Part shown: positions 8,014 through 35,808 of the stretch, piece after piece
Position numbering within the stretch: the stretch's first letter is position 1
Layout of the letters: each line of letters starts with the position of its first letter
Assembly (NCBI GenBank): GCA_963796955.1
Contig: CAWCNJ010000004.1
Coordinates: 160,001 to 224,000, forward strand
Origin: Endomicrobiales bacterium
GTDB lineage: Bacteria > Elusimicrobiota > Endomicrobiia > Endomicrobiales > JALOBY01
DNA length: 64,000 nt
Direction: 5' to 3'
Program-made: the position numbers and the translations under genes
The notes under the pieces: model-generated
Seen by the model: the letters and a program-made list of their open reading frames with translations, nothing else
Databases searched by the model: none
Told to the model about the DNA's origin: nothing

Positions 8014-8053
8014 ACAAAGCCGGCTTACCTTTTTATGGGTATTCCGGCTTTGT
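8014..8053 (+). terminator. Hairpin, probable intrinsic terminator after the giant gene
   Basis: Inverted repeat acaaagccgg…ccggctttgt starting ~20 nt after the stop at 7995. Confidence 0.55.
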
Positions 8054-8351
8054 TGAAGACCCGTTTGCGGGGCGCCAGAAGCGCCTCGCCTCGGATCTTA
8101 CAGCCGGACGTTTTGTACCGCCGGTTATGGCGGACGACTGCCCCGAACTGCAACCACATTTAACCATAAACGGTCCTGTCGTACCATGCGGTTTCTCTCA
8201 AATTTACTGACTTGGAGTTTTCTGCGAGAAATTTGTCGGATCTTCAAAAATAATTATATAGATACGAAAGCATGGCATAGTTTGACTTAAACTCAATTAT
8301 TGAATATAATTGCGAAAAGAATATAGTCTTCTGTTGATCAAGGGGGGGAGT

Positions 8352-11637: not shown

Positions 11638-11641
11638 TGTT

Positions 11642-14176: not shown

Positions 14177-14204
14177 TTGAAAAAAAAATGAATTCTGCTA
14201 TGAT
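14177..14204 (+). promoter_or_regulatory. Putative sigma70-type promoter for the riboswitch leader
   Basis: TTGAAA-16 nt-TATGAT with extended TGn before the -10, ~100 nt upstream of riboswitch 1. Confidence 0.4.
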
Positions 14205-14300: not shown

Positions 14301-14397
14301 CTTCGCATTGACGATAAAGGCAAACCAGATGAAAGTCTGGGGCGCAAAACCACGGGGCTTAAGATAGGGGCTATCTACGCCAGCCGGGTTACCGAAG
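14301..14397 (+). promoter_or_regulatory. c-di-GMP-I (GEMM) riboswitch aptamer 1
   Basis: AAAGGCAAAC-CAGAT-GAAA-GTCTG-GGGCGCAAAACC…CAGCCGGGTTACCGAA; P1 cttcg/cgaag; GAAA tetraloop on P2. Confidence 0.88.
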
Positions 14398-14460
14398 CAG
14401 ATGTTGTTCTGTAGCTGTTTTTCATTTTGGTGTCTCAGGTCGCATAAAGACCCCTATCTC

Positions 14461-14508
14461 AGGCTACTGTGGCTCAGATGTGATGAGCGATGGTAGTCTT
14501 TGTTTTTT
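14461..14508 (+). terminator. Intrinsic terminator, expression platform of riboswitch 1
   Basis: aggctactgt…atggtagtct stem followed by ttgtttttt. Confidence 0.65.
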
Positions 14509-14527
14509 GGTGGAACATGAAGCAATT

Positions 14528-14706
14528 GCTCTTTCAAACGAAGTTCCGACAAAGGCAAACCCGGTGAAAGCCGGGGACGCAAAGCCGCCTCGCATGATGC
14601 GAGGGTTCTACCCGAAAGGCGGGTGGAATACGGGTCTAAAACGACAGTCCGAAGTCCGAAGTCCGGAGTCCGGAGCATCGTTAAGACGGCCGGGTTACCG
14701 AAGAGC
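14528..14706 (+). promoter_or_regulatory. c-di-GMP-I (GEMM) riboswitch aptamer 2, expanded by insertions
   Basis: AAAGGCAAACCCGGTGAAAGCCGGGGACGCAAAGCC…ACGGGTCTAAA…GACGGCCGGGTTACCGAA; flanking gctcttt/gaagagc pairing. Confidence 0.8.
14646..14673 (+). repeat. Heptamer tandem repeat (AGTCCGR)x4 in the P3 loop of riboswitch 2
   Basis: agtccga agtccga agtccgg agtccgg. Confidence 0.9.
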
Positions 14707-14818
14707 TGAGAATCGTTTCCCCCGAAGAATAGGGGAGCCCAGACGATTTTTAGAAACAGTTAAGAGCACGCATAGCTTATATAATAAGCTACTCGCGCGC
14801 GAATTAACGAACTTAGGT

Positions 14819-14862
14819 AACCGGACTGCCAGACCCACACATGGCTGTTCGGTTTTTTGTTT
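14819..14862 (+). terminator. Intrinsic terminator, expression platform of riboswitch 2, just upstream of the first ORF
   Basis: aaccggactgcca…tggctgttcggtt stem followed by ttttgttt. Confidence 0.7.
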
Positions 14863-14879
14863 GAAAGGCGGAGAAGAAA

Positions 14880-15275
14880 ATGAAAACACGGTTCGCGATG
14901 AAAATGATGCTGTTGACGATCGGCCTGCTGCTGAACAGCTGGGGCGCCCCCCGTTTCACGGCCCAGCTCACGCAGCCGCTTGTTGTCAGCGTCACCAATT
15001 ACCCGAACCCGTTCGACAGCCGCTGCGAGAGGACCACCATCCTGCTCTCGCTGGCGCAGGAATCGCAGGTAAGCATTTCCATCTACGATCTGCTGGGTAA
15101 CATGGTGCGGCAGTTCCCTTCGATGAGCGAGGATGCCGGCACCACCAGCATTGTCTGGGATGGGACGAACGATGACAAGGAGAAAGTGGCAAAAGGCGGA
15201 TATCTGGTGCTGGTCGTGGCCAATAGTGAGGCCGGTACATCCCAGGTAATACGAAAGGTCGGCGTTTTGCATTAG
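14880..15275 (+). CDS. Signal peptide plus stand-alone FlgD-Ig/T9SS type A-like sorting domain
   Basis: NYPNPF…IYDLLG…WDGTND…VAKGGY…RKVGVLH; GGAG RBS. Confidence 0.8.
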   Translation: MKTRFAMKMMLLTIGLLLNSWGAPRFTAQLTQPLVVSVTNYPNPFDSRCERTTILLSLAQESQVSISIYDLLGNMVRQFPSMSEDAGTTSIVWDGTNDDKEKVAKGGYLVLVVANSEAGTSQVIRKVGVLH

Positions 15276-15285
15276 TGACAAAAAA

Positions 15286-16923
15286 ATGAAAAAGAAACTG
15301 GCAACCACCAATCTCATAGCGATCTTCAAGTCTCTGGCCTGCTGCGCCAAAGCGCTTGTGGTGGTTTGCGTTGTTCTCTTCGGACTTCTGATTTCGGACT
15401 CTGGACTGGTGTATGCCGACAACACCGGCGGCCAGGCTGGCCAGTTCCTTGCCTGGGGCGCCGGAGCCCGTTCTCTGGGGATGGGCGCGGCCTTCTTCGC
15501 TGTAGCTAATGACGCATCGGCAACATACTGGAACCCCGCCGGGCTGCCGCAGCTGGACCGCAAGGAGCTTATGGCGCTGCACGTAACGTTGTTCGCCGAT
15601 ACGACCTACGATTTTATTTCTTACGTACATCCGACGCCGAACCTGGGCGTTTTCGGTATAAACCTGACCCGTTTATATTCCACGGGATTTGAAAAAGTTA
15701 ACATCACGTTTGATTCCACAAAGACCGACATCGTCGACATTCAAAGCATGGGAACATTTGATGATTCCCAGACCGCCCTTACCCTGGCGTACGGCAAGAA
15801 TATCCGCGACGGCATTGCGATCGGCGGTTCGTTCAAGTATATAACCCACACGCTGGATACCTCAACGAACGGATTCGCTACCTTCGACGTAACATCGCTG
15901 GTGACCGGCGTAACTTCGGCGCTGCCGGACATGAAGATGGCCTTCGGCATAAACAACATCATGAGCAGCGCTTTCGGCGACACGGAAGACAAACTGCCGA
16001 TGATACTTCGCGCAGGCATTTCGCAGCCGTTCCTGAAGAACAAGCTGCTGCTTGCGGCCGATATGAACAAAGGCATGAGCTCGGACATGGAGTGGCACCT
16101 GGGCACCGAATACTGGCTGCTGAATTTCGCAGCATTGCGCGTGGGCTTTAAAGGCCAGCAGGGCATCAGCGAAACAACGGCCGGATTCGGTCTGAGATAC
16201 CGCGATTACGGATTTGACTATTCTTTCGGGCTGACGGATCTGGGTATGTCGCAGCGGGTGAGCGGTTCCTGGCGCTTCGGCCTCTCCGTGAACCAGAACA
16301 AGGAAGCCCTGGTTCGCCGCTACATTCAGGAAGGCATGGAAGCATACACCAAGGGTAATTTCCTTCTTGCGCTGAATCGCATGGAAGCGGCTCTTGACAT
16401 AGACCCGTCCAACAAGGACGTCCAGAAAATGTCTAAACGTCTGCAGATGGTCATAGGCTTTATACCGTCCGCCAAAGCTGAGAACGAGGAAGAGACGGCT
16501 ATCCGCAAGGGTGTGGCCGCCTTCACCGAGAACGATGACAAGGGCGCCATAAACGCCTTGCGCTACGCCTATTACAAGAACCCCGCGAACCTGAAAGTGC
16601 TGCACCTGTTGAACGCTATGGAAAAAGAAATGGGTATCAGTATCACACCGGTATATAAGGAAGAGGCGGCCGGCTTTACCATGCTGGATCAGAAAATTTA
16701 TGATGCGCGCCAGGCTATTATTGAAGGTAAATATGATCAGGCGCTGATCAAGTGCCAGGATATAATGAACCTGGAGCCGGAAAACGTGACCGCACTTGAA
16801 ATGATGGGTTCTGCCTTCTTCATGATGGACCAGCCGGAAAAGGCGAAGCAGGTATGGATGAAAGTGCTTGAGATAGATCCGTCGAACAAGGTGGTACCTG
16901 AGTTCCTTAATCAGTTGAAGTAA
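15286..16923 (+). CDS. PorV/PorQ-family beta-barrel fused to C-terminal TPR domains
   Basis: GAGARSLGMG…ATYWNPAGL, DYSFGLTDLGMSQRVSGSWRF, then TPRs (ALDIDPSN, LEPENVTA, LEIDPSN). Confidence 0.82.
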   Translation: MKKKLATTNLIAIFKSLACCAKALVVVCVVLFGLLISDSGLVYADNTGGQAGQFLAWGAGARSLGMGAAFFAVANDASATYWNPAGLPQLDRKELMALHVTLFADTTYDFISYVHPTPNLGVFGINLTRLYSTGFEKVNITFDSTKTDIVDIQSMGTFDDSQTALTLAYGKNIRDGIAIGGSFKYITHTLDTSTNGFATFDVTSLVTGVTSALPDMKMAFGINNIMSSAFGDTEDKLPMILRAGISQPFLKNKLLLAADMNKGMSSDMEWHLGTEYWLLNFAALRVGFKGQQGISETTAGFGLRYRDYGFDYSFGLTDLGMSQRVSGSWRFGLSVNQNKEALVRRYIQEGMEAYTKGNFLLALNRMEAALDIDPSNKDVQKMSKRLQMVIGFIPSAKAENEEETAIRKGVAAFTENDDKGAINALRYAYYKNPANLKVLHLLNAMEKEMGISITPVYKEEAAGFTMLDQKIYDARQAIIEGKYDQALIKCQDIMNLEPENVTALEMMGSAFFMMDQPEKAKQVWMKVLEIDPSNKVVPEFLNQLK

Positions 16924-17073
16924 AATATAAGAGTATCTAAAAGGATCTGGTTTAAAAAGATGCAACAGCTTACAAAAGTTTTTAAACAAAACACGCTGAA
17001 AAGCCCGACACTCTGTGAAAAAACAGGGAGCCGGCTTTTCATTGCCTTATACCATATTCAACAGGAGCTCATT

Positions 17074-18843
17074 ATGAAATTGGTCGCGCGGGCGCTGTTC
17101 TTCTGTCTGCTGGTGCTGATGCCGGCCTTTGCCGCATCCACCGACAACAGCGGCGGGGGTAAGACCGCCGAGATTTCATTGCTTGAACAGGAATCAAAAT
17201 TTGAGAAAGACAAGTCGGACTATCTTCAGCAGAACGTGGTAGACAAGATACTGGGGCCCGGCAACGCCGTGGTGATCGTTGACGTGGAGCTGGGCATAGA
17301 GACCAAAGTTACGAACCAGGGCGCGAAAGAGAAAAAAACCGAGCGCAAGAAGCGCCTCGGTGAAGTGGAATATCTGCTGCCCGGCGTGCCGAACCCGAAG
17401 TCTGTCGCGAACGAATCCCAGCCGGGCGAATCGAAAGAAGAGACGGGAGCCGCGGAAGAAACGAAAACAGAATCAAAAACGGTCATAAAGAAGCTGCAGG
17501 TAACGGTGCTTTACGATGAAAAAATAGTCCAGGAGAAACTGGATACCGTTAAAGAAGCTATTATAAATTTCCTTAAGCTGGACCCGAAGCGCGGCGACAA
17601 GATAGAGTTCAAGAAAACAAAATTCACCAGCGGATTCTTCGAAGAAATGATGAAGCCGCTGATACTGATTCCTCTTATCATAGCGCTGCTGGTATTGTTC
17701 TTTCTGTTCGGGCCGTTGGCCAGTTTTTTCCGCAATTATGTGCGTACGCTTGCTGAACACGGCGGAACAGAAGTTACCGTCGACTCAAAATTTGAAGGTG
17801 ATAAGGGCGATGAGGAAGGAGCCGGTGGCGCAGGCGGCGGTGGCGTGGGAGAAGGCATTCTCGGCGAAGGCGACGGTAAGAAATATATACCTTTTGAATA
17901 TATAAACGATGACAATCTGAAAAGGCTTGTCTATCTGGTAAAGCGCGAGCCGCCTGAAACGATATCGCTGGTGGTCAGCTACCTGAAGCCCGAGTACGTT
18001 AAGGAACTGCTGAACGCCCTGACACCGGAACTGCAGGCGAAGGTGGCCACCGAAATGGCGACGATCCGCTCGCTGGACATGGATGATGTTCAGAAAGTGG
18101 ATAACTACATAAAGGAAAAGATAGAGTTCCTTATCGGCGGATTGTATCACCTGCTTAACGTGCTTGATAAAGTAGACCCGATCACGCAGTCCAATATATT
18201 CGAATACCTTAAGAATGAAAAACCGGACCTGTATGAAATGGTGCGGAAATTCGTGCTGATGTTCGACGATATACCCAATTTCCCGGACCAGGCGATGCAG
18301 GTGATAATCCGCGAGCTTAAGACCCAGGATATGGCGAAAGCACTGCGCAACGCCGAGCCCGAGATCATGAACAAATTCCTTGCCAATATGTCGACGAACG
18401 CTTCCGCCATTTTAAAAGAAGAAATGGAGTACGGCAGGCCCCTTACCGATGCCGAGGTTGAGGAAGGCCGCAAACAGCTGATGGATGTGGTAAAGAAGCT
18501 GGAGGCGGAGAACAAAATATTCCTGCGCGAAAAGCCGAAGTCCGGCGTGCTGGAAGGCCTGGAGGCCGGTAGCAACGATAACACCAGCTACAACGAATAT
18601 TATCAGGCAGGCGTGGGTTCTTATGAAGCGGGGGAGTACGACGCGGCCTTGCCTTACCTTGAATACTGCACACAGCTGGATCCTACACAGCCGGCGGGCT
18701 TTCAATATCTGGGCGCTGCATATTACGCGCTTGGGCGTACCGCCGAAGCGGTAGCAGCGTACGAAAAAGTGGTTGAGCTGGACCCGACCAACGAAGAACT
18801 AAAAAACTGGCTTGCTTCGCAGAGCGCCAATAAACTCGCATAA
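17074..18843 (+). CDS. FliF-C-like ring domain - TM - FliG middle and C-terminal domains - TPR fusion protein
   Basis: AGGAG RBS before ATG 17074. FliF-like VDKILGPGNAVVIVDVEL…IKKLQVTVL…LDPKRGDKI; TM helix; FliG-M PFEYI…EPPETISLVVSYL; FliG-C MFDDI…FLANMS…ILKEEM…VEEGRKQL; terminal TPRs. Confidence 0.8.
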   Translation: MKLVARALFFCLLVLMPAFAASTDNSGGGKTAEISLLEQESKFEKDKSDYLQQNVVDKILGPGNAVVIVDVELGIETKVTNQGAKEKKTERKKRLGEVEYLLPGVPNPKSVANESQPGESKEETGAAEETKTESKTVIKKLQVTVLYDEKIVQEKLDTVKEAIINFLKLDPKRGDKIEFKKTKFTSGFFEEMMKPLILIPLIIALLVLFFLFGPLASFFRNYVRTLAEHGGTEVTVDSKFEGDKGDEEGAGGAGGGGVGEGILGEGDGKKYIPFEYINDDNLKRLVYLVKREPPETISLVVSYLKPEYVKELLNALTPELQAKVATEMATIRSLDMDDVQKVDNYIKEKIEFLIGGLYHLLNVLDKVDPITQSNIFEYLKNEKPDLYEMVRKFVLMFDDIPNFPDQAMQVIIRELKTQDMAKALRNAEPEIMNKFLANMSTNASAILKEEMEYGRPLTDAEVEEGRKQLMDVVKKLEAENKIFLREKPKSGVLEGLEAGSNDNTSYNEYYQAGVGSYEAGEYDAALPYLEYCTQLDPTQPAGFQYLGAAYYALGRTAEAVAAYEKVVELDPTNEELKNWLASQSANKLA

Positions 18844-18866
18844 AAGTTACTTTGGGAGACCAAAAA

Positions 18867-21800
18867 ATGGACATCTTTAAAAACAAAAAACCGGCTGAAG
18901 GGACCAACCCCCAGGTGGAGACGCCACGGATGGCAGAGCCCCAGCCGCCAACCGCGCAGCCGCCCGTTCCGGTGATTTCCGACAGCCAGGCTATGGCCGA
19001 GGCCAGGGCCCGCGCGCGTGAACAGTTGAACCTTATGGAGCAAAAGATCGCTCAGGAGCGCGAAGCCTGGTCGCATAAAGTCAAGGAAAAGGCCGAAGAG
19101 CAGGTTTCCTGCAACGCGAAGCTGGATATGCTGGTAAATCGTATCGCTCTTGAACGCGAGCGCCATGAAGCGGAGCTTGTCCTTATGCAGCAGAGCATCG
19201 ACAACGATCTTAAGTCTATCGACGCGGCGCTGGAAGCTGAGACCGCAAAATGGACGGAGCGCCTTTCGTTGAAGGATAAGGATATTGAAGATGCCAGGCA
19301 CCGCTCGGCCTTTGAAGAGACCCAGAAGAAAATAGAGTCTGAACAATCCCTGCGCGCTCTTAAAGTTGAAAAAGACGCGCTGGAACAAAAATTCAAAAGC
19401 CTGCAGCGCTCCATGCTGGAAGAACAAAATAAGTGGCTCGGCCAGATACGGCTGAAAGAAGAAGAGATCGTAAACCTTAAAACACAGATCGCGTTGCACG
19501 AAGAACAGATGAAAACCGACGAAGAAAAGAACACGTTGACCAGGAAGGAGTCGGAAGAAAACTGGCATACGCAGATAAAGGAGCTGGAGGAGCGCCTGGA
19601 TACCCAGCGCACCGACTGGACCCGCGTGCTCGCGAAAAAAGAAGAAGAGCTTTCAGCCATCAAAACAACGCTGGAGCAAAAACTTTCCACCCTTGCGATA
19701 GAGACCGAGCGCAAAGAGAACGATATCCGCCTTCTCAAGACCCGCATGGAAGAACGCATCAAGGCCGCCGAAGAATCCCTGAACGGAGAGAACGCGCGCT
19801 GGCAGCAGCTGCTGGGAGAACGCGATGAGGAGTTTAAAAAACTGCGCGTGGAGCTGATGCTGCGCGACAGTCAGGAAAAAACCGAACGCCAGAAAAAATA
19901 TCAGGACCTTAAAGACGCCGAATCCACCGCCTCCCGCCGGATCCGCGAGGCGAAACAAAAACTGGAAGATGAAAAACAGGTCTGGCAAAAGCGTATAAAC
20001 GATAAAGATGAAGAGCTGAAGAACCTCAAGATCCAGGCCGAGCTTAAGCTGAAAGATATCCAGGACGACCGGGCACTCCGGCAGCGCCGCGCTGAGGAAG
20101 AAAAATCAGCGCTCTCAGCCACGCTCGCAAGCTTGCAGGAAAAACTTGAAGAAGAACGCGTTACTCTGCAAAAAAGCGTTGCGGAAAAAGACGCGGAGAT
20201 AGAAACCTGCCAGCAGCAGTGGCAAAATACGCACGATGCGATGACCCGGGAAGGCGAAGCTCACATCAAAGAGCTGCGGGCGCAAAAAGACAGTTATGAA
20301 AGAGAAGTGCTTGCCCTGGAAGCCCAGCTGGCCCAGGAAAAACAGAAATGGAATACATTGATTCAGGAAAAGGACAAGCAGCTCTCTGTCGCGCGCGCCG
20401 AATATAACGCCAGAGAAGCGCTGGTGCACCAGGAACTGAATATACTGGAAGAACAGTTGCGCAAAGAGCAGCAGCCGCTGCTGCGACAGGTGCACGATAT
20501 TGAAGGAAAAGTAGGGGAATTGCAGCGCGCCGCCCAGATAGAGATATCGCACCGCGAGACCCAGAAAAAATCGTTACAGGATCAATTTCAACGCCGCGAA
20601 GAGAATCTGCGCCAGCGCCTGAATATTCAAATAGAGAAGATCAAGGATTCGGAAAATTCTCTCGCGGGCCGTGTTGCCGAAATAAAGGCGCATATGGACG
20701 CGCAGGGAAAAGAGGCGCAGTCAAGGCTTGAGGCTCTCGAAGAAGAAGGACGTCTGATCTCCGGACAGATGTCGCAGGAACATGAGCGGATAGAGGCTGA
20801 GAAAGCCAAGTTGTCTGAAAAATATTTGTCTGCCAAACTGGAACTTGAAGAGAGTATTAAAAAACTGGAAAACGAATACGACCTGATGCATACGACCTTG
20901 CAAGCTGAAATAGAGGAAAAGACCTCGGAACTTGCCGGCGAAGAGACCCGTCTGCACGCTGCCGAAGAAAGGATCGCAAAAGAAACAGCACAGCGCGAAA
21001 AAGAGTTCGCGGACCTTAAGGCCCGCGGCGACAGCCAGCTGGCGCAGCTGAGCGGCGAACTGGAAGCGCTTAAGAAACGCAATGACACCGATATACGTTC
21101 CCAGGTCGCCCAGCTGGAACTGCTGCGGCGCCAGGGCGCGGCGCGTGAGCAGGAGATGGCGGCGGATATAGAGGTCATCAGGCAGAACTCCGAGTCGGAA
21201 TTGAAACCCATGGCGGACCGCAAGGAGCAGCTGCGCTCACAGCTGGATTCCCTGCGCGCGCAGTCACAGACGAAACTGAAAGCCATCGACGGGCGCATTA
21301 GCGCGCTTCGGGCGCAGCATGACGCTATCGAAAAAGAATTCCTGGGCAGAAAGAACGTCGTCACGGAATCAATAAACGGTGTACAACGTGACAGTGAAGG
21401 AAAACTCCGCGCGCTTCAAAACGAACGCACGGAGCTGGAAGCTGCGTTTGCCCGCGAAATGTTGTTGAAGGAAGAAGAATTCTCAGCTCTCGAAAAAGAA
21501 GTGAACGGGCATGTGCAATTATTACAGCAAAAGAAGGATGCGGAGCGCGAAGAAGCCCGTATGCAGATGGAAAGCATGCGCGCCGACATAGACAAACTGT
21601 ATGAAGAAGTCTCGCGGGTTGAGACGGAATACCCGGAAATACTGGCCACGCGCCAGGAAGAACTGGTTTCTCTTGAAAAACAGGTCAATGAACGCGCGCA
21701 ATATTATCAGAAACAAACCCTTCAGGCGGAAAAATCGCTTGAGAATTATCAGCGTCGGGCCGAAAGCCGCATAGAGACCGTCCGGACGCAGCTGGACCAG

Positions 21801-23753: not shown

Positions 23754-23775
23754 CTAACCCTTCAGGGAGGATGTC

Positions 23776-27848: not shown

Positions 27849-28509
27849 CGAACTGCATAAGCTTAGAGAAAAATGGGAAGCGTCTTTCAGCGCTCTGGAA
27901 TGCACGGCGCGCGGTGCCGGCAGCAGCGATGCTTTCCGCAACAATGAATTCGCATTGCTGCGCGAGGAGGTGGGCGCGCTCAAGGCTGAACTGGTGGAAG
28001 CCAGGCGTGAGCGGGAAGCGTCCCGGTACGCGGACACCCGCGCGAGTGAGCTGGAAAACGCCATACGCCTGCAAACGCTGGACAACGAGAATAACAGGCG
28101 TGCTCTGGAAGAACTGTGCCGGAGCCGCGTTCAGGAAGAAAACCTTTCCGTCCAGGCGGCGGAAAAGGCGGCGAAAACGATCGCCGGTGAAAAAGAACGT
28201 GCCGAAAGCCTTGCCGAAGAATTGTTCTTTGCACGTGCCGAAAATGAGGCGTTACGGCAGCGTGTCGCGGCCGCCGATGCAGCCGCGTGCGATGCCCGCG
28301 CCGCAGCCGTGGAACGCGAGAAGTCATTTTCCGGCCTGCTTGAGCGGCTTAACCGCGCCGAATCAGAGTGTGAGCGCATCTCACAGAATTTTATCCAATA
28401 CCGGATGGAAATAATCACCCGCGGCAACAAAGAAGAACGCCATCGCCGCCATAGCGAGCCGGTCCTGGGTGAGAAGATCATATCCTGGCTGTCCAACAAA
28501 GAGCGTTAA
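27841..28509 (+). CDS. Coiled-coil hypothetical protein
   Basis: 222-aa heptad-rich ORF overlapping the upstream stop. Confidence 0.7.
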   Translation: MNNELHKLREKWEASFSALECTARGAGSSDAFRNNEFALLREEVGALKAELVEARREREASRYADTRASELENAIRLQTLDNENNRRALEELCRSRVQEENLSVQAAEKAAKTIAGEKERAESLAEELFFARAENEALRQRVAAADAAACDARAAAVEREKSFSGLLERLNRAESECERISQNFIQYRMEIITRGNKEERHRRHSEPVLGEKIISWLSNKER

Positions 28510-28529
28510 GACATAATTAAAGGGGAAGT

Positions 28530-31500
28530 ATGGGTCGATCGAGTAACTATTTATTCATTGCCCTTATCTTGTTGCTGGCCGGCTTTGTCGTTGCGTGGGC
28601 TGCGCCCGCTCCCGTCGGCGACCTTGCCGCTTCGTCGGCAGGCTATCGCCATATTACCCTGACCTGGAGCACGCCGTACGATGCGGCGGCTTCCACCACG
28701 CCTGCGTATTACGATCTGCGCTGCTCGACCACGACCCCCATTATAACGGCCGCGGACTGGAATAACTGCCCCTCTTCTCCGGTCTACCCCTATAATATTG
28801 TTTTCACAACGCAGGGTGTTTCAGCCGGCAGCCCTGTCTCGTTTTCGGTGACCGGGCTTACGAACGGCCGCACCTATTTCTTCGCCATCAAGTCTTCCAC
28901 CGATAATATTTCCTGGTCGGCGCTTGATACGTCGAGCCCTGAACCCTTTAATACTCCCTTCAATACGGTACCCTACACCCTTCAATCATACGATTTCCCG
29001 GCTGCCCGTTCTGAGGTCTATACTTCAACCCCCACGTTGACGTGGCACAGCGATACGGTAACGCCGGGTTCCGACGACAGCGTCTGGGGTGATTCCATAG
29101 TTACCTATACCGTTGAATTATCAACAGATGTTTCATTTGGTTTCCATTCATCCGAAGATGTTTCCATACCTTCTTATACCACATATCCGCTTGCTGAAAA
29201 TACCACGTATTACTGGCGTGTGCGACCGCACGACAGCGAGGGGCTTCAATCTGCCGGTTTCCTTGATCAGACGGACCGCTGGTTCATGGTCAATGCGAAA
29301 AAAGACGCGCCAACTCCCTTCAACCTGCTATTGCCGGCGAACCTGGATATCATCAACAACAATACGCCGTCCCTGCAATGGTCGGCCTCTACCTGCGCCG
29401 ATCCCATGCCGGAAGGCATTGTCTCGTATACCGTCCAGTACAGCACCAGCCCTACCTTCAATATTGTGTGCACCACCACGGTCGCGGCCCTGGCGGGATC
29501 TCCCTACGCGGTGCCGTCGGCCTTGATCGAGAATGCGCACTATTTCTGGCGGGTATACGCGGTCTCCGGCTCCGGTGTTTCAACGATGTCATCTTCCACC
29601 GGCACCTTTTGGGTCAATGCCATACATACGGGGCCCGGCATATTCGCGCCTGCCGGACCGCCAAACGCGTCGATCGTGCGGCTTTCCACGCCAACTATTT
29701 CCTGGAGCCCTTCGGCCGACCCGGATCCCGGCTCAGCGGTCGTTTATAACGTCATATATTCTTCCACCGATATTACGTTGAGCATGGATTATCACGTCAT
29801 CTCAGGCATTGGCACTACCTGGTATGTTCTGCCGCCGCTGCAGGACGGTGTTGTTTACTGGTGGCAGGTGCAGTCTGATGACGGGGCCGGCGGCCAGTAT
29901 CAAAGCACAGAATGGTCATTTTCCGTGCATGCGGTTAATGCGCCACCAACGCCGTTCGATCTGCTCAGCGCTTCAGGAACGGTCGCGACACTTAAACCTG
30001 CATTTTCCTGGCAGGCCGCCACTGACCCCGAGGGCGACGCCTTCTCCTATACAGTGCAATACACGACGACTGATTTCTCCGCGGCGGTTTCCTCAGCCGG
30101 GTTGCATGTCGCTTCTTTTACGCCGGCCGTTAATCTTACGGAAAATGCACAATATCTGTGGCGTGTGATGTCCGTAGACAGTTTCGGCGCGCAGCGTATG
30201 TCGAACCAGACCTGGCCGTTGGCTATAAATGCCAACCCCGAGCCGCCGCTGCCGTTCTCGCTTGTTTCACCGGCTGATCAGGCCCAGATAAGTTATCTTG
30301 CTCCTACGCTTATCTGGCAGGCGACAACCGATCCGGACCCGGGCGATTCTATCGCCGGTTATACCGTCAGATATTCGACTGCTCCCGATCTGAGCAATGC
30401 GGTTTCCGTAGCAGGAATTTCTGTCACCTCCTATACCGTCACGCCGCCGCTCACCGCGAACACCACCTATTTCTGGAGCGTGCGTGCGGTTGCCACGCAG
30501 AGCGGCCAGACGGACGCAGCGGCGATCCGCAGTTTTTTCGCGGTGAACCAGCCGCCGCTGGCCTTCTCGCTGCTCGCTCCTTCGGGCATCATTGCCACAC
30601 GCACGCCCACGCTTAACTGGCAGGCCGCGCCGGATCCGGAAGGCGATGCCGTAACCTACACGGTCCGCTACGCAACGAATGCGGCATTTGCCGGCGCCGT
30701 GTCGGTGTCCGGTATAACGAACAATTATTACACGACCCCCGCGCTGATAGAAGACGCCAGCTATTACTGGAAAGTTGATGCCGTCGATGTATGGGGGCAT
30801 GTGCGTAACTCAACGAACGTTCTGCCGATCGCCATTAACAGCATTGATTCACCCCCGGCGGTATTCGTCTTGATCTCCCCACCTGACGGCACGGTATGCG
30901 GGGTACGCCCTGTATTTTCCTGGCAGGCCTCATCGGATACCGATCCGGGCGACAGAGTTTCCTATGAGTTATGGTACTCCACTTCGCCGGTCTTTGCCTT
31001 TAAAACGGTGGTAGCTTCTCTTCCGGGAACCTCGTACACAACCGTCCAAAGCCTTATACCCGGCACGACCGTATACTGGAAAGTCAGCGCCCTGGACAAC
31101 GCCGGCAACCGTACGATGACAACCGCCTGGCGGACGTACATCTCTCAGGCAGAGCCGCCGGAGACACCCGCAAATTTTACCGCCATGTCCTCGGCTGATG
31201 GTCGCACGATCACGCTTACCTGGCAGGCGCCGGGTGCGAACGCCGATGGCTCAGCGTTGACACCTCTTGATGGTTTCTGTATTTACCGCGCCTACGATCT
31301 TAACGGCGTGCTGGCCTCAGTAACGCCTCTTATTATCCCTGCTGGCATGACCTCGTATACCGAGCAAATAGCCGCCGGCCAGACCGTGTATTATCAAGTG
31401 AGCGCAAGGAATATCCTTGGCGGTGAAAGCACCCGGTCCCGCGCTGTTTCAGCCGGCGCGCAGGGAGAACTTTTAAGCTACACGAATGATTGCGATCTGA

Positions 31501-32138
31501 TACTTTCGTGCCCGCCAAATGTGGTCCCCTCGTCCTATTCAGTCACGGTAAGCCGCGACGGCGCACTGGAATTCGGGAACGTTTTGCGTCATTATTCCGT
31601 GCACGTCGCTGCCGGCGGCGTCGAGCTGAAAAAATATGTGTTTTCAAAGCCGCTTACCATCTCGCTTAAGACGGACACCGCGATCCAGTCGCCGGCCGCC
31701 CATGCCCCGGTGCAGGCGCAACTCACCACGGGTATTTTCTGGCATAACGGCGTTGAATGGATCTACCTTGGCGGTGAAAACGCTTCCGGCGATATCAGCG
31801 TCAGGGCAAGTTCCGCGGGGGAATATGAATTGCGCGCCGTATCACGTTCATCTGAATTCCACGTTCTCTCTCACTGGCCGGCGATAATTACGCCGAACGG
31901 GGACGCCATCAACGATGAGTTCAACATCACATTTGAAAACCCCATGTCGGACGCGGTCTCCGGCGAGATTTACGACCTCCGGGGCGCGCGTATCGCGGAA
32001 ATGTCGGCCAAAACCGATACCTGGTATATTTGGAACGGCAGCGATGACAACGCCCTCAGGGTTGTCCCGGGAATATATATCTATCAGCTTAAAGTAGGCG
32101 AAAAACGTTACAACGGCACGGTGGTGGTGGCAAGGTGA
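28530..32138 (+). CDS. Secreted multi-Fn3/Ig-repeat adhesin with gliding-motility-associated (type B, CHU_C-like) C-terminal domain
   Basis: Signal peptide; about seven ~100-aa repeats P.F.L..P…TP.L.W…DPD/EGD…Y.WRV; C-terminus ITPNGDAINDEF…IYDLRG…WNG…PGIYIY…GTVVVAR. Confidence 0.82.
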   Translation: MGRSSNYLFIALILLLAGFVVAWAAPAPVGDLAASSAGYRHITLTWSTPYDAAASTTPAYYDLRCSTTTPIITAADWNNCPSSPVYPYNIVFTTQGVSAGSPVSFSVTGLTNGRTYFFAIKSSTDNISWSALDTSSPEPFNTPFNTVPYTLQSYDFPAARSEVYTSTPTLTWHSDTVTPGSDDSVWGDSIVTYTVELSTDVSFGFHSSEDVSIPSYTTYPLAENTTYYWRVRPHDSEGLQSAGFLDQTDRWFMVNAKKDAPTPFNLLLPANLDIINNNTPSLQWSASTCADPMPEGIVSYTVQYSTSPTFNIVCTTTVAALAGSPYAVPSALIENAHYFWRVYAVSGSGVSTMSSSTGTFWVNAIHTGPGIFAPAGPPNASIVRLSTPTISWSPSADPDPGSAVVYNVIYSSTDITLSMDYHVISGIGTTWYVLPPLQDGVVYWWQVQSDDGAGGQYQSTEWSFSVHAVNAPPTPFDLLSASGTVATLKPAFSWQAATDPEGDAFSYTVQYTTTDFSAAVSSAGLHVASFTPAVNLTENAQYLWRVMSVDSFGAQRMSNQTWPLAINANPEPPLPFSLVSPADQAQISYLAPTLIWQATTDPDPGDSIAGYTVRYSTAPDLSNAVSVAGISVTSYTVTPPLTANTTYFWSVRAVATQSGQTDAAAIRSFFAVNQPPLAFSLLAPSGIIATRTPTLNWQAAPDPEGDAVTYTVRYATNAAFAGAVSVSGITNNYYTTPALIEDASYYWKVDAVDVWGHVRNSTNVLPIAINSIDSPPAVFVLISPPDGTVCGVRPVFSWQASSDTDPGDRVSYELWYSTSPVFAFKTVVASLPGTSYTTVQSLIPGTTVYWKVSALDNAGNRTMTTAWRTYISQAEPPETPANFTAMSSADGRTITLTWQAPGANADGSALTPLDGFCIYRAYDLNGVLASVTPLIIPAGMTSYTEQIAAGQTVYYQVSARNILGGESTRSRAVSAGAQGELLSYTNDCDLILSCPPNVVPSSYSVTVSRDGALEFGNVLRHYSVHVAAGGVELKKYVFSKPLTISLKTDTAIQSPAAHAPVQAQLTTGIFWHNGVEWIYLGGENASGDISVRASSAGEYELRAVSRSSEFHVLSHWPAIITPNGDAINDEFNITFENPMSDAVSGEIYDLRGARIAEMSAKTDTWYIWNGSDDNALRVVPGIYIYQLKVGEKRYNGTVVVAR

Positions 32139-33709
32139 GATCTATGAACACTAAACGCATAACAAAGTGTTGCTTGATCCTGTTGGCAGTTACTACTGCC
32201 TGCTGCCTGCTCCCTGCTCCCTGCAGTTCCGCCTTTGACGAATATTTAACCGGCGCCCGGGTGCGCGCCATGGGCGGCGCATACGCGGCTCTTGCTGACG
32301 ACGTGAACGGGGTGCTCGGTCAGCCGGCGGCGTTGGCGAACCTGGCTGATACCCAGCTGTCTGTCAGCTACGGGCAGTTATATCTGGGACTTTCTGACGG
32401 AAGCAGGATCAGCGACAGCTCAATCCTTTTCGGTATGCCTGCCGGGAAACATTTTGGTATCGGCGCCGCTTACCAGTCCCTCTCCCTTAACAGTACCTAC
32501 AGTGAAAACACCGCGCTGCTTGCTGCGGGAGCGTCCATCTGTTCGGGCCTGCGTGCCGGCGCGGCCGCCAAAATGTTGACGGTTTCCTACGGCCATGACG
32601 GCTACACGGACCTCGATCCTGTTTTCGCCGGAGGAATGTCGAGATCGGCCATGGACGCTGATCTCGGTATTATCTGGCAGGCAACAGGTAAGATCTCTTT
32701 CGCGTATACCAGGAACAACCTGCTTGGCGCCGACCTCGGTCTGGCAGAAACGGCGCCGGTCACTGCGCGGGACATAGTTGCCCTCGGGTATCGGGAAGAG
32801 GATTTTACATTCGATCTTGAAGACCAGCAGGGCGGCTTGGAAAACCGCGTGGTCATTGGCATAGAAAAACTTCTTATTGATCATCTTCTGGCTCTCAGGC
32901 TGGGTTTTGGTTCCGGGAACAGGGATTACCGTAAAGTCAGCACCGGCTTTGGCTTCAATATGAAACAATTCTCCATTGACTACGCTTTTGAATATCCGCT
33001 GTCCGGCATCGAGGGAACATCCGGCACGCACTACCTTACTATCTGTACGCATTTTGGCGCGCATCAAACACCTGCGGTGGAACAATGCAAGATCATTTGC
33101 GAACCGAAAACGCCTGTACCCGTTCCGGCACCGCAAATACCGGCTCAAGCGGAGCTACAAAAGCCAGTCTGTCAGGAAGTAAAGCCTGTGCCCGTTGAAA
33201 AGACCGTGGTAACCCCGGCCCCTGAAACCTATATGGGCAGCGGCAAATTACAATTGCTCAATATGCTTCAATTGCAACAGTTCGCGGTGGCCCCGTCGAC
33301 AACACCTGTGGTGCAACCGCCGGCGGTTTCCAGCGCCGCTGTCGTGCCGGCTCCGATAAACGCCGTTGCGCAAAGCACGGCGCCGGCAAATACCGAAATA
33401 AAGGCTGTTGTCCCGGACGCCGCAGAAGAGGATACCGAGGAGCCGGCCGCGATCCAAAAGATCCCAAAAGCAAAGCCTGCAATAGAAAAGCCGTCTCCTG
33501 TTGATGATGAGCTGCGCCCGCGGACGCTGAACGGCCAGGCCCCGGGCAAATATACCGCCATTCACAGGGTCGTCTACGGGGATTCCCTGCCGTCGCTCGC
33601 TGAAAAATATTACCACGCCAAAGCGCGCTGGGTTGATATATACGAGGCTAATAAAGATAAGATCGAGAAGGGCACTCTGCAGGCCGGACAAATACTGATA
33701 ATCCCTTAG
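32135..33709 (+). CDS. PorP/SprF- or PorV-like beta-barrel with Pro/Ala linker and C-terminal LysM domain
   Basis: GARVRAMGGAYAALADD; FSIDYAFEYPLSGIEGTSGTHYL; LysM HRVVYGDSLPSLAEKYY…W..IYEAN…LQAGQILIIP. Confidence 0.8.
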   Translation: MRSMNTKRITKCCLILLAVTTACCLLPAPCSSAFDEYLTGARVRAMGGAYAALADDVNGVLGQPAALANLADTQLSVSYGQLYLGLSDGSRISDSSILFGMPAGKHFGIGAAYQSLSLNSTYSENTALLAAGASICSGLRAGAAAKMLTVSYGHDGYTDLDPVFAGGMSRSAMDADLGIIWQATGKISFAYTRNNLLGADLGLAETAPVTARDIVALGYREEDFTFDLEDQQGGLENRVVIGIEKLLIDHLLALRLGFGSGNRDYRKVSTGFGFNMKQFSIDYAFEYPLSGIEGTSGTHYLTICTHFGAHQTPAVEQCKIICEPKTPVPVPAPQIPAQAELQKPVCQEVKPVPVEKTVVTPAPETYMGSGKLQLLNMLQLQQFAVAPSTTPVVQPPAVSSAAVVPAPINAVAQSTAPANTEIKAVVPDAAEEDTEEPAAIQKIPKAKPAIEKPSPVDDELRPRTLNGQAPGKYTAIHRVVYGDSLPSLAEKYYHAKARWVDIYEANKDKIEKGTLQAGQILIIP

Positions 33710-33723
33710 AAAGGAGCAGTTCA

Positions 33724-35808
33724 ATGGACGACAACAAAAACGAATTTAACACGGGTTTTTCCGACCTCGACGCCGAGATCGGCAGGCTTAAAGCCGAGCT
33801 GGCCCACCAGGGTGACATGGTCGACCAGATACGGGTGCCCGCTTCCACCGGTGATTTTTGGGGACGCCGGATGGAAGAAGAGAAGAAATTGAACGAAAAG
33901 AAAATGCTGCTCGCCGAGGAAGAAAAGCGCGTGCTGGAAGCCAGGATGGCTTCTCAGCAGGAGCAGGTAAAAAAGTACAGCGAATCGCTTGCGGAACTTG
34001 AAAAGCGTTTCGAGCGCGAGGCTAAGGGCTGGGAAGAACGCCTTAAGGCAAAAGAGGCCGATCTGCTGCTGGAAAAGAACCGTATTTTCTGGGAAGAGAA
34101 ACTGCGCGAAACCGAACATGAGAATCACTCGCTGCTGCAGCAGGTAGCCCGTCTTAACGAAGCCATTACGCAGCTCAAAGACGAACAGAACGCCGATAAA
34201 CTTAAATATGAAACATCAACGACCGAGGAAAAACAGCTTAACGAAACGAAACTGCATGGCATGCAAAAAGAGATGGACGCCCTCCGGGAACGCGCCCTGG
34301 ACCTGCAGTCTCAGTTAGCCTCCGCCAGCGATCAGCTGCGCACGGCGAAAGAAGGCTACAACGCAATAAAAAGGGAATTGGAACAAAAAATAAACGACCT
34401 GATAGGCGAAAAGACGTCGCTCGGCGAGAAAATGAACCTGGTCATAAAACAATCCGATGAGGAACGGGCGAAGGTGGAACTGTGGGTGCGCAATGTAAAT
34501 ACCGGATTCGTGCAAAAGATCCGTCATTACATCGGGTCCCTGGAAGGCCTGGCCCATTTTATTTCAGACAGGCCGCCCAGCAAAGCGACGACCAGCTATC
34601 TGGAAAGTATCATTCAGGAACTTGAGGGTGAGACGGAAATGCACGCCACCAGCCTGAAGCTGGAATCGTATCAGCGCTCATTCGTGGCTGTGGACCTGCT
34701 GGTAAACGACGAAGCCGCGATGTGCCGCAAGATCCTTTCGGTTACGGTCTCTGAGACGAAGATCGCCACGCCCGGTAACTTGATGGCGATGATAGAAAAA
34801 GCCAAGCCGCAGGTGCTGCTGGTCTCAGGTATCTATTACAAAAAAGCTCTGGCCGTCAACCGCCGTTGGCCTTTCCTGCCGATCCTTATTTTCGGCTCGT
34901 TCGACAAAGAGGCTGAGCGCAGGCTTAACTCGGCCAGCATCAAGATCATCGCGCCCCCGTTCATGAGCGGTGATATCGCCGATATCATTTCGAGCGTAGC
35001 CCGTCACAGCATCGCCAGACCCGAATATTGGGAACGCATTCAGTCGAAGCGCAGTTACCTGGGAACCATTGTCATGGCGGGCGCACTGGCGTGCGGCCTG
35101 CTGGGCGGATATTACTTCAAGGATATCACCGGCGGGATCGGCGCCATGGTCTATACCGCGCGGCCATCCACCTATATTCCGCCCTATACGAACCCTTCAA
35201 ATATTTCCTTTGACGGCAAGAATATCTGGGTCTGCGACTGGTTCGGCCAAAGCATTTACAAGCACAGCGCCGACAGCAAGTTCAAGGTGGAACACATTTA
35301 TTTCTATCCTGGTAAGCATTTTACCGCGATCACCTGGCACAACGGGGTTCTGTGGACTGCCGACGCGTGGGATAACAAAGTCTACCGGCATAATAATGAC
35401 GACGACCTGTCTGTGGCCGAGACCTTTACCGTGCCGGAAATGTCCATTACCGGCCTTGCCTCTGACGGGAAATCGCTCTATTCCTGCGATACGGCCAGGG
35501 GTCAGATCTATAAGCACCGCCTGGACGCCACGTTGTCCATAGATGCGGTTTACGACACACCGGGCAAGAATCCCTGCGGCTTATTCTACGACGGAAAGAA
35601 TCTCTGGAGCGTTGACAGCAAAACCGACCGGATCTACCGCCATCGCATGGATGCCAAACTGACGCCGGAAGCCTCTTTCCTGATCCCTGAACTGTCGCAA
35701 AAACCCGGTATGATATCCGGCGTGGCGATCGACAACGGCATTCTATGGCTGACCTCGGAAAAATATGGAAAAGTGATGAGCTACCCCCTGAGGCTGGCGA
35801 AGCAGTAA
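33724..35808 (+). CDS. Coiled-coil - (pseudo-receiver-like) - TM - beta-propeller protein
   Basis: N-terminal coiled coil, single TM (YLGTIVMAGALACGLLGGYYF), repeats SFDGKNIWVCD / ASDGKSLYSCD / FYDGKNLWSVD. Confidence 0.75.
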   Translation: MDDNKNEFNTGFSDLDAEIGRLKAELAHQGDMVDQIRVPASTGDFWGRRMEEEKKLNEKKMLLAEEEKRVLEARMASQQEQVKKYSESLAELEKRFEREAKGWEERLKAKEADLLLEKNRIFWEEKLRETEHENHSLLQQVARLNEAITQLKDEQNADKLKYETSTTEEKQLNETKLHGMQKEMDALRERALDLQSQLASASDQLRTAKEGYNAIKRELEQKINDLIGEKTSLGEKMNLVIKQSDEERAKVELWVRNVNTGFVQKIRHYIGSLEGLAHFISDRPPSKATTSYLESIIQELEGETEMHATSLKLESYQRSFVAVDLLVNDEAAMCRKILSVTVSETKIATPGNLMAMIEKAKPQVLLVSGIYYKKALAVNRRWPFLPILIFGSFDKEAERRLNSASIKIIAPPFMSGDIADIISSVARHSIARPEYWERIQSKRSYLGTIVMAGALACGLLGGYYFKDITGGIGAMVYTARPSTYIPPYTNPSNISFDGKNIWVCDWFGQSIYKHSADSKFKVEHIYFYPGKHFTAITWHNGVLWTADAWDNKVYRHNNDDDLSVAETFTVPEMSITGLASDGKSLYSCDTARGQIYKHRLDATLSIDAVYDTPGKNPCGLFYDGKNLWSVDSKTDRIYRHRMDAKLTPEASFLIPELSQKPGMISGVAIDNGILWLTSEKYGKVMSYPLRLAKQ

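Follow-up and report, generated by a model that had tools for sequence, protein, structure and literature searches.

The window analysed here, a stretch of 64,000 nucleotides (nt) from the genome of an Endomicrobiales bacterium of the phylum Elusimicrobiota, contains a cluster of nine plus-strand genes, g1 to g9, which extends from 14880 to 35808, follows two cyclic di-GMP (c-di-GMP) riboswitches and includes as g3 a natural fusion of parts of the flagellar proteins FliF and FliG. With moderate confidence we interpret this cluster as the c-di-GMP-controlled, tetratricopeptide-repeat (TPR)-tailed variant of a flagellum-independent rotor-stator machine of Elusimicrobiota, which serves pairs of outer-membrane barrels and cargo proteins and uses coiled coils with a tryptophan-containing (W) motif in the place of the C ring. 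An earlier sequence-only reading of the same DNA had proposed a chimeric trans-envelope apparatus for adhesion, gliding or secretion. Its non-flagellar, conserved and chimeric character is borne out by the data below, whereas the links between ring, scaffold and outer membrane as well as the function stay at the level of a proposal.

Domains were called with Pfam and NCBIfam, RNA elements with Rfam cmscan, and AlphaFold models were compared with known folds by Foldseek. The assignments, with lengths in amino acids (aa), are as follows; CTD denotes a type IX secretion system (T9SS) C-terminal domain and TM a transmembrane helix.

g1, 14880..15275, plus strand: 131-aa secreted protein consisting of a signal peptide and a T9SS type-A CTD alone (TIGR04183 29.6 bits, cut-off 23; FlgD_ig 42.5 bits; YPNPF motif)
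g2, 15286..16923, plus strand: PorV/PorQ-family outer-membrane barrel (residues ~50-336) with a C-terminal TPR region of ~200 aa (NF033709 125.2 bits, cut-off 90, residues 51-336; TPR_2, TPR_19)
g3, 16960..18843, plus strand: FliF(RBM3/collar)-TM-FliG(M,C)-TPR fusion, likely start at 17074 (589 aa)
g4, 18852..23753, plus strand: 1633-aa cytoplasmic giant coiled coil (TPR_16 at residues 1547-1606; no signal peptide; no other family)
g5, 23776..27848, plus strand: coiled coil of ~1357 aa, split into the frames 23776-24375 and 24147-27848 by a one-base (-1) break at ~24130-24135
g6, 27841..28509, plus strand: 222-aa helical protein overlapping g5 by 8 nt (no Pfam or NCBIfam match)
g7, 28530..32138, plus strand: 1202-aa secreted Fn3/Ig-repeat protein with a type-B-like CTD (Ig_Rha78A_N 95.4, fn3 88.5 and CHU_C 37 bits, cut-off of the latter 27; TPNGDAIND tail motif)
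g8, 32135..33709, plus strand: PorP/SprF-like barrel, proline-rich linker and C-terminal LysM (PF11751 29.1 bits, cut-off 22.3; LysM 27 bits), with a 4-nt overlap with the CHU_C-bearing g7
g9, 33724..35808, plus strand: predicted bitopic membrane protein with coiled coil, (beta-alpha)5 domain, TM and propeller (AlphaFold mean pLDDT 76.3; only weak propeller matches with hidden Markov models)

Successive genes are spaced by +10, +36, +8, +22, -8, +20, -4 and +14 nt. Since the next gene, rsfS (35815-36162), lies on the opposite strand, the cluster ends at 35808; on its upstream side, 11642-14152 encodes an 836-aa phage-tail-collar-domain protein belonging to a different group of surface proteins. 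The two c-di-GMP-I riboswitches ahead of nine tightly spaced co-directional genes were correctly recognised in the sequence-only reading (Rfam scores of 84 and 45.8 bits; gaps of -8 to +36 nt), as was the domain make-up of g1-g3 and g7, for which the Pfam/NCBIfam matches exceed the cut-offs.

The central component of the cluster is g3, which probably starts at 17074 because its orthologues begin at about residue 39. Pfam assigns to it FliG_C (95.6 bits, cut-off 23.3), FliG_M (49.9, cut-off 25), YscJ_FliF_C (25.0, cut-off 23.8) and TPR; two paralogues in the same genome score 40.6 and 39.8 bits with YscJ_FliF_C. In the AlphaFold model (mean pLDDT 81.7) the periplasmic domain has the order alpha-beta-beta-alpha-beta and matches FliF RBM3/collar ring subunits (6sd1, 6scn, 7bk0, 8z5v and others) at E ~6e-4 and a probability of 1.00, while the cytoplasmic part matches the FliG MC structure 1lkv at E 2.8e-12. 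The protein thus combines the M and C domains of FliG, both above the Pfam cut-offs, with the RBM3/collar domain of FliF. It is not a full-length FliG (TIGR00207 113.9 versus 226.7 bits, model positions 112-326 only), and the FliF RBM1/RBM2 family YscJ_FliF (PF01514) gave no match in the Pfam search at E 0.01.

The genome contains three FliF-FliG fusion paralogues (window, contig 6 and contig 7), and the family is genetically tied to flagellar-type MotAB genes outside the window operon, so that the attribute 'orphan' used in the sequence-only reading has to be dropped. As a whole the fusion family comprises 215 homologous protein clusters, whose source names are Elusimicrobia/Endomicrobia and one Omnitrophica only. 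Among 301 sampled Elusimicrobiota genomes from 98 genera, the fusion was found in 105 genomes and 66 genera; it is nearly absent from two large families (1/89 and 1/88 genomes). In a quick tree all 21 proteins of the TPR-tailed type are located on one side of a branch with a support of 99, and the two other paralogues of the own genome are sisters. Contig 8 of another genome (L073 40-8128) encodes a very divergent 473-aa fusion, ~24% identical to g3, whose operon also comprises MotA-MotB-MotB, a PorP-like barrel and Fn3-CHU_C cargo; subtypes beyond the TPR and the short (TPR-less) types therefore exist in the family.

Gene order was compared in 20 orthologous g3 loci of other genomes (TPR-type loci; BLAST threshold E 1e-5) and in 20 loci of other genomes around short fusion paralogues (short-type loci). 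The gene for the PorV-like barrel g2 lies directly 5' of the fusion gene in 18/20 TPR-type loci, with 40-69% identity, which is more than chance, and a CTD protein occupies the position of g1 in 16/20. This g1-g2-g3 core is syntenic across classes, and the synteny expected by the sequence-only reading is thereby established across the phylum. A g5-like coiled coil accompanies the core in 16/20 loci. Judged by gene content, the phylum-wide core is g1-g2-g3 plus the g5-like coiled coil, with g4 and g7-g9 as class-level additions and g6 as a non-conserved gene. At the short-type loci a PorV-like barrel is found in 18/20 and a giant type-A CTD protein in 7/20.

The idea that g3 represents the fliF/fliG gene of a real flagellum was rejected. 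FlhA (PF00771), FliMN_C (PF01052), the rod family (PF00460) and flagellin (PF00669) gave no match in the own genome, an assembly of 2.10 Mb in 11 contigs and 81% complete, under search conditions in which each family was positive in 4/14 control genomes, and the 25 further open reading frames of the window include nothing flagellar according to Pfam. Throughout the phylum FlhA is present in 6/301 genomes and in 3/105 of the fusion-positive ones. These data agree with the 'clear absence' of flagellar genes in Elusimicrobia stated, in the available part of the text, by a paper on neighbouring phyla (PMC7031533). They also uphold two statements associated with the sequence-only reading, that the 64 kb contain no recognisable flagellar genes (both MotA_ExbB matches of the genome lie on contigs other than that of the window) and that no flagellar set lacking only fliF/fliG exists elsewhere in the 81%-complete genome, as far as FlhA, FliMN, rod and flagellin are concerned. 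The best protein matches bear the names Endomicrobiales or Elusimicrobia.

Stators of the flagellar type are genetically associated with the fusion. Extended to the whole genome, the search for flagellar, MotAB/ExbBD and SprA genes suggested earlier yielded two MotA-MotB-MotB sets and a distant SprA homologue, and no flagellar or TolQ/ExbB-type match. One of the sets directly follows the contig-6 fusion, which has a TolB-like PD40/Fn3 protein on its 5' side and a CHU_C protein and a PorV-like TPR barrel in its region. The other set stands alone (L069 8623-13512; contig 3, 154622-159511) and belongs to the short-operon clade; behind it come genes for a helix-turn-helix response regulator, a histidine kinase with REC and GAF domains, and a receiver consisting of a single domain. 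This set may serve as stator of the contig-7 rotor, which has none adjacent and whose gene is preceded by those for a CTD protein of 1011 aa, a PorV-TPR barrel and a PD40/Fn3 protein. MotA shows full-length NCBIfam matches to MotA, PomA and MotP (193-207 bits, under the equivalog cut-offs of 237-394), with no TolQ/ExbB model listed, and matches the MotA/PomA structures in the PDB at E 1e-46 to 1e-55; the four MotB genes encode MotB_plug and OmpA domains. The genome thus possesses flagellar-type stators, encoded outside the window. A charged loop of MotA (KR..QEE) aligns with those PomA residues which we take to face the rotor.

MotA-MotB-MotB flanks the short fusion paralogues in 17/20 loci, and MotA-MotB lies downstream in 10/20 TPR-type loci, all from other classes than that of the window. 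Flagellar-type MotA was detected in 111/301 genomes, which include 102 of the 105 fusion-positive ones, and three of the nine genomes with MotA only are flagellated (the overlaps of fusion, MotA and FlhA were compared by hand). In the MotA tree there are two deep clades, both with a support of 100. Clade 1 consists of all 10 MotAs of TPR operons and 7 MotAs from unlinked MotA-MotB pairs of the window's class, whose TPR operons lack a stator, and clade 2 of all 18 short-operon MotAs and both MotAs of the own genome. Each rotor type therefore has its own stator clade, and in the class of the window the stator has moved out of the operon.

The leader of the cluster contains the following elements.

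14177..14204, plus strand: promoter-like site, TTGAAA, 16-nt spacer, TG-TATGAT (consensus scan only, 10/12 matches), ~100 nt 5' of aptamer 1
14309..14396, plus strand: c-di-GMP-I aptamer 1 (Rfam RF01051, 84 bits, E 4.3e-15, complete model 1-87; recovered by a scan of the whole genome)
14544..14702, plus strand: c-di-GMP-I aptamer 2, tandem to the first and containing a long insertion (RF01051, 45.8 bits, E 9.3e-06, model 1-87/87)
14706..14753, plus strand: strong hairpin directly after aptamer 2 with a U run at its end, candidate expression platform or terminator (-25.1 kcal/mol, z -4.35, 0/200 shuffles as stable)
14819..14863, plus strand: weaker hairpin followed by UUUUUUGUUUG, just 5' of the g1 ribosome-binding site (-21.6 kcal/mol, z -2.11, 6/200 shuffles as stable, hence weak evidence)

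Both aptamers are complete and exceed the gathering score of RF01051 (35), which identifies them as c-di-GMP-I riboswitches with predicted ligand binding, and they constitute the only two Rfam matches of the entire window, both on the plus strand. The hairpins appeared only on folding; a simple terminator scan called no plus-strand terminator in the leader. Aptamers of the c-di-GMP-I or c-di-GMP-I-GGC type are located 5' of 12/20 TPR-type loci, in tandem in 7/20, and 3 of the 12 riboswitch-led loci also carry MotAB. A whole-genome scan recorded three c-di-GMP-I aptamers, two in the window and one elsewhere, and as all are accounted for, the other two rotor loci of the genome are without riboswitch control. 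The third aptamer lies ~47 kb upstream of the window (contig 4, 112735-112796), ahead of genes for a HEAT-repeat protein of 257 aa and a giant protein (at least 3255 aa) with Ig-like repeats. Each of the three riboswitches in this genome therefore heads a surface-protein or envelope locus. Such control fits a role in the deployment or movement of surface proteins, i.e. in attachment, gliding or secretion.

The outer-membrane side of the cluster resembles components of the T9SS. The barrel of g2 scores above the cut-off of the PorV/PorQ subfamily model NF033709 and remains below the narrower equivalogs (PorV NF033710 41.3/250, PorQ 40.4/220 and PorV2 71.3/325 bits). As both ends of PorV-type barrels face the periplasm, the TPR tail of g2 should be periplasmic. 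T9SS sorting domains are present in g1 (TIGR04183) and in g7 (CHU_C); the type-B assignment of the latter in the sequence-only reading is supported by the CHU_C score of 37 bits and not by TIGR04131 (22.3 bits, under the cut-off of 35). Similarly, the SprF/PorP-like barrel-LysM architecture read for g8 rests on PF11751 and LysM, whereas TIGR03519 (21 bits versus 90.55) and PorV_fam (40.5 bits) remain below cut-off. A distant SprA/Sov homologue of 1820 aa is encoded in the own genome (TIGR04189 157.7 bits versus a cut-off of 200). Its gene (L070 3444-8906, contig 8) points away from the divergent lptF/lptG genes, and a REC-GGDEF diguanylate cyclase is encoded nearby.

On the cytoplasmic side, g4 is composed of a proline-rich N-terminus, about eight 61-aa W-motif repeats (residues 43-530) and a C-terminal TPR; the tryptophans at 73, 134, 195, 256, 317, 378 and 500 keep the 61-residue spacing. 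The motif, W-x3-[LIVM]-x2-[KR]-acidic-x-acidic-[LIVMF], also occurs in the conserved core of g5, and its 6 matches in the 896,470 residues of the genome's long frames all lie in g4 and g5. Orthologues of g4 are found in 10/20 loci, every one without nearby MotAB; conversely, none of the 10 TPR-type loci with downstream MotA-MotB has a clear g4. g5 lacks a signal peptide and starts with a PPLP/proline-rich region, its W-motif core being the first ~110 residues of the second frame. Its orthologues share an N-terminal K-K..P-K..PPLP motif and, after a highly variable coiled coil, a C-terminal W..LN.P.I.I motif (27755-27848 in the window). A complex prediction of g3 270-589 (FliG M, C and TPR) with the g5 core 1-115 scored 0.00 against a mark of 0.32, which is evidence neither way.

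On this basis we propose a scenario for the machine, in which we infer ring formation, rotation, coupling to the envelope, every protein contact and a cellular function in adhesion, gliding or secretion. The tandem c-di-GMP riboswitches would decide on transcription of the gene set. g3 would form a ring in the inner membrane, with the FliF RBM3/collar domain in the periplasm and the torque-receiving FliG M and C domains, followed by the short TPR tail, in the cytoplasm. Flagellar-type MotA/MotB, powered by an ion gradient, would act on the FliG_C face of g3; they would derive from the clade dedicated to the TPR-type rotor, which other classes encode within the operon and the class of the window encodes at another place in the genome. 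The periplasmic collar might be coupled to the g2 barrel, probably via its periplasmic TPR tail, and g2 would hold or shuttle proteins with T9SS-type sorting domains, namely g1 here and giant adhesins at the paralogous loci. A cytoplasmic scaffold built from the TPR tail of g3, the W-motif proteins g4 and g5 and the cytoplasmic part of g9 would replace the FliM/FliN C ring. Class-level additions to this assembly would be the adhesin g7, g8 as its PorP/SprF-like carrier, presumably anchored to the wall by LysM, and g9.

Several observations, considered here together with the alternatives on which they bear, weigh against this interpretation. The first group concerns g3 itself. FliG_N is missing (19.2 bits versus a cut-off of 25, overlapping the FliG_M region), and the EHPQ motif reads EPPE in an alignment to Thermotoga maritima FliG (3ajc); in flagellar motors EHPQR of FliG_M is the FliM-binding surface and FliG_N binds the FliF C-terminus. 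When the Escherichia coli FliG numbering was placed on the family alignment by our own reading, the torque-helix positions of g3 were found to be K264 = R, R281 = N, D288/D289 = EE and R297 = T. The acidic pair is EE in 15/21 TPR-type sequences and retains at least one acidic residue in 21/21; most short-type sequences have one acidic residue (QE or EQ), and the own contig-6 paralogue beside MotAB reads QM. The R281 equivalent is basic in 0/43 aligned family members. In E. coli, according to the accessible parts of the source, MotA R90 contacts FliG D288/D289 and MotA E98 contacts FliG R281 (PMC12505986); pairs of MotA and FliG residues are likewise named in PMC7564593, also available in part. 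With the R281 equivalent lost and QM in the contig-6 paralogue, the classical electrostatic interface is thus half preserved, and we read this pattern, at the level of the alignment, as an interface remodelled rather than lost.

The same residues lend themselves to the alternative that the FliF/FliG-like ring and the coiled coils form a static platform, a fixed envelope anchor or polar scaffold for adhesins without rotation, to which MotB and LysM merely contribute tethers to peptidoglycan. Besides the R281 loss in 43/43 sequences, the degenerate EHPQ motif and the failure to find FliM/N, the window operon has no stator gene, the giant TPR-ended coiled coils look scaffold-like, and the wall-binding LysM of g8 argues for a g7 adhesin that is held in place rather than moved. 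A static platform does not account, however, for a full-length MotA with flagellar-type best matches and an intact charged loop, for stator genes beside the fusion in 17/20 short-type and 10/20 TPR-type loci, or for MotA clades that track the rotor types. Conservation, linkage and clade matching of MotA constitute the pattern expected if the contact between stator and FliG_C is under selection, and we therefore consider a non-rotating platform unlikely and retain the rotor-stator interpretation.

A second group of observations concerns the integrity of the window's copy. The own assembly yielded no MotA of the TPR clade; with two MotAs of that clade as queries, tblastn matched only the two genes of the short clade, at 36-42% identity, and the cognate stator is therefore either encoded in the missing 19% of the genome or lost. 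In addition, g5 is broken by a single base in a short A run near 24132, and the ~1357-aa gene described in the sequence-only reading as one protein is not a single open frame; its counterpart is one open reading frame of 723-1244 aa in all 16 relatives having it, and aligned relatives read through the site (...LLLQTVRAKEEEA...). With no MotAB in the operon, no TPR-clade MotA found and a frameshifted g5, the copy may lack parts or be in decay, or else the assembly may contain errors. In the extreme case the system would work in relatives and be in the process of loss here, with g5 broken, the cognate stator gone and nothing functional encoded. Loss does happen, as the fusion count of 1/89 and 1/88 in the two large families indicates, and the 2.10 Mb assembled contain no TPR-clade MotA. 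Yet all genes except g5 are intact, g3 has no stops and shares 59-66% identity with its nearest orthologues, the frame break amounts to a single base in an A run, and the missing 19% of the genome suffices to hide a 1.5-kb motAB pair. We accordingly judge a decaying copy to be improbable.

Thirdly, g4 and g6-g9 stand outside the phylum-wide core. Only 6, 5 and 2 of the 20 TPR-type loci contain an orthologue of g7, g8 and g9, respectively, and BLAST at E 1e-5 retrieved g6 from 0 of them. It is conceivable, albeit with low probability in our estimate, that riboswitch-g1-g2-g3-(g4)-g5 alone is the motor module, g7-g8 an ordinary pair of type-B-CTD adhesin and PorP/SprF-like carrier and g9 an unrelated gene, which share a transcript or a location and nothing else. 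Such pairs of type-B CTD cargo and PorP-like protein stand alone in Bacteroidota, as described in the accessible part of PMC9143113, and the own genome has further cargo/PorP-like pairs elsewhere. Against mere neighbourhood it can be held that the genes overlap or nearly abut with no terminator called (the scan covered the leader only) and that in the short-type loci L061, L067 and L073 the fusion and MotAB occur together with CHU_C cargo and PorP-like barrels. Moreover, the coiled coil of g9 bears a tryptophan resembling the g4/g5 motif, though it fails the strict pattern. The AlphaFold model of g9 suggests a cytoplasmic coiled coil (12-316), a (beta-alpha)5 domain (320-427), a TM (446-463) and a periplasmic beta-propeller (482-690), and thereby agrees with the coiled-coil/TM/propeller protein of the sequence-only reading. 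Foldseek retrieved five- and six-bladed propellers, e.g. glutaminyl cyclase 2iwa with E 4.9e-12 and a TM-score of 0.68 on the target. The (beta-alpha)5 domain looks receiver-like in the modelled order of its secondary structures, the fold search being dominated by propellers. Only 8 homologous clusters of g9 exist.

Finally, the T9SS-like context and the counts themselves have to be considered. Weak SprA_N matches occur in 62/301 genomes of the phylum, fusion-less families included; in one family SprA-like proteins are found in 18/89 genomes and the fusion in 1/89. GldM, GldL and GldN gave 0 matches in 5 genomes and equally 0 in the 14 control genomes, so that the sensitivity of this search is unproven. 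With the SprA-like protein below cut-off and GldL/M/N not found (GldK and PorU were not searched for), a complete Bacteroidota-type T9SS is not indicated. Furthermore, related genomes are non-independent samples, and the co-distribution counts of fusion and MotA therefore overstate the support that they lend.

The paralogous loci also brought up the idea of a Tol-Pal-like system for envelope maintenance, in which MotAB would take the part of TolQR, the fusion that of TolA, a PD40 protein that of TolB and the TPR barrel that of CpoB or Pal. At both rotor loci of the genome outside the window, a gene for a TolB-like PD40 propeller protein with Fn3 separates the fusion from the PorV-TPR barrel (L004 5489-7381 and L005 11597-13168), and no TolQ/ExbB-type match was obtained in this genome. 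The idea of a Tol-Pal replacement was set aside after one or more separate TolQ/ExbB-type genes of 209-226 aa had turned up in addition to the MotAs in each of the 5/5 fusion-bearing relatives searched. Because MotA belongs to the flagellar type, the genes that constantly accompany the fusion encode CTD cargo and PorV-like barrels, and the window operon lacks a PD40 gene, we regard this possibility as highly improbable. The window operon does, despite the missing PD40 gene, encode a periplasmic propeller in g9. At the contig-7 locus, a 23S rRNA intervening-sequence protein (L004 3534-3899; four-helix bundle, bAvd-like) is encoded between the giant CTD protein and the PorV-TPR barrel.

Taking the rotor-stator interpretation further, one may tentatively, and with more doubt than confidence, envisage a second rotary engine made from flagellar parts, in which dedicated MotAB clades rotate a FliF-FliG ring that, in place of the missing GldLM, drives a T9SS-like conveyor made up of PorV/PorP barrels and CTD adhesins. 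In the window this engine would be gated by c-di-GMP, with giant W-repeat coiled coils forming a lattice where the C ring would be; this lattice may connect or brake many rotors. The whole could be a living relative of a pre-flagellar rotor-stator module. If true, a conserved multi-copy FliF-FliG/MotAB module in a mostly flagellum-less phylum, wired here to secretion-type outer-membrane barrels and giant adhesins, would represent a new class of ion-driven envelope machine. It would bear on the origin of the flagellar motor, i.e. on whether the rotor-stator core existed before, or apart from, the export apparatus, as well as on the energising of T9SS-like cargo handling outside Bacteroidota and on the switching of surface behaviour by c-di-GMP in uncultured lineages. 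g3 would in addition offer a compact natural FliF-FliG chain for structural work.

Other parts of the window are described for completeness. The plus-strand group upstream of the cluster (8-14152) begins with a 2077-aa protein without Pfam match and includes a UPF0164/PorV-like barrel (8879-9811) and a PMT_2 glycosyltransferase with TPR (9808-11637). On the minus strand, 41422-49757 is occupied by a MoxR AAA_3 / DUF58 / BatA-BatB VWA / TPR / BatD operon.

Among known systems, the core of the flagellar motor (FliF MS-ring, FliG and MotA5B2/PomAB) is related to the present one by FliG_M, FliG_C and YscJ_FliF_C in g3 and the corresponding fold matches, by linked MotA/MotB with best matches to MotA/PomA/MotP, MotB plug and OmpA domain, and by the retained MotA charged loop and FliG acidic pair. 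To our knowledge, neither FliG nor the FliF ring has been described outside flagella. Here, however, export gate, rod, hook, filament and FliM/N are lacking. g3 is one chain with a TPR tail, without FliF RBM1/2 and FliG_N, with R281 lost and EPPE for EHPQ; it is encoded beside PorV-like barrels, CTD cargo and giant coiled coils, and several paralogous rotors occur per genome. Engineered head-to-tail FliF-FliG fusions of Salmonella and Vibrio still form MS rings, as reported in the available sections of PMC10941966 and PMC11481574, and g3 matched the PDB entry 8z4d ('Flagellar M-ring protein, Flagellar motor switch protein FliG'). Ring assembly is thus compatible with FliF and FliG being joined covalently in one chain. 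The engineered chains combine full-length FliF and FliG (945 aa) inside a complete flagellum, whereas g3 is natural, comprises ~590 aa without RBM1/2 or FliG_N and belongs to a flagellum-less genome.

The T9SS/gliding apparatus of Bacteroidota (GldLM/PorLM, GldKN/PorKN, SprA/Sov, PorV, SprF-SprB) shares with the cluster the PorV/PorQ barrel, the type-A CTD protein and a PorP/SprF-like barrel right after a type-B-like CTD adhesin, and with the genome a distant SprA homologue. In contrast, the ion-driven motor beside the barrels is here MotAB with a FliF-FliG ring instead of GldLM, the PorV, PorP and SprA equivalog models all stay below cut-off, and the phylum is Elusimicrobiota. Outer-membrane carriers of Bacteroidota such as SprF are described, in the part of PMC12635249 available, as coupled via a periplasmic C-tail to a motor-driven inner track. 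The periplasmic C-terminal extensions of the present barrels, TPR on g2 and LysM on g8, are comparable, and by analogy the g2 TPR tail could act as such a carrier tail towards the g3 collar.

In Myxococcus Agl-Glt, Tol, Ton, GldLM and Zor, an ion-driven motor of the MotA/TolQ family serves a complex spanning the envelope, either in surface movement or in outer-membrane work, and large cytoplasmic coiled-coil partners occur. They use TolQR/ExbBD-like motors which push periplasmic rods or TolA/TonB-like arms, and we know of no FliG/FliF rotor in any of them; the stator considered here belongs to the flagellar MotAB clade, and its likely target is cytoplasmic FliG_C.

With respect to the phylum itself, a preprint (10.1101/2022.07.08.499144) states that most free-living Elusimicrobiota lack structural flagellar genes and nevertheless possess numerous motAB, flbD and fliG homologues, whose role it calls 'unclear' or 'enigmatic'. 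Its passages on MotA, FliG and flagella make no mention of a FliF-FliG fusion, PorV-like/CTD operons, coiled coils, the riboswitch or two stator clades, and the string 'Elusimicrob' does not occur in the accessible text of the study on MotAB evolution (PMC12505986). The combination was regarded as undescribed in the sequence-only reading, and we likewise found no published description of the fusion, the operon or the coiled coils. Compared with these accounts, the new elements are the two stator clades matched to two rotor types, with the stator out of the operon in the class of the window and not found in this assembly, and further the genome-exclusive W repeat, the domain order of g9 and the frame break of g5. 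The window itself thereby contributes a TPR-tailed, riboswitch-led operon type with its own stator clade, coiled coils with W repeats, and a class in which the stator has departed from the operon.

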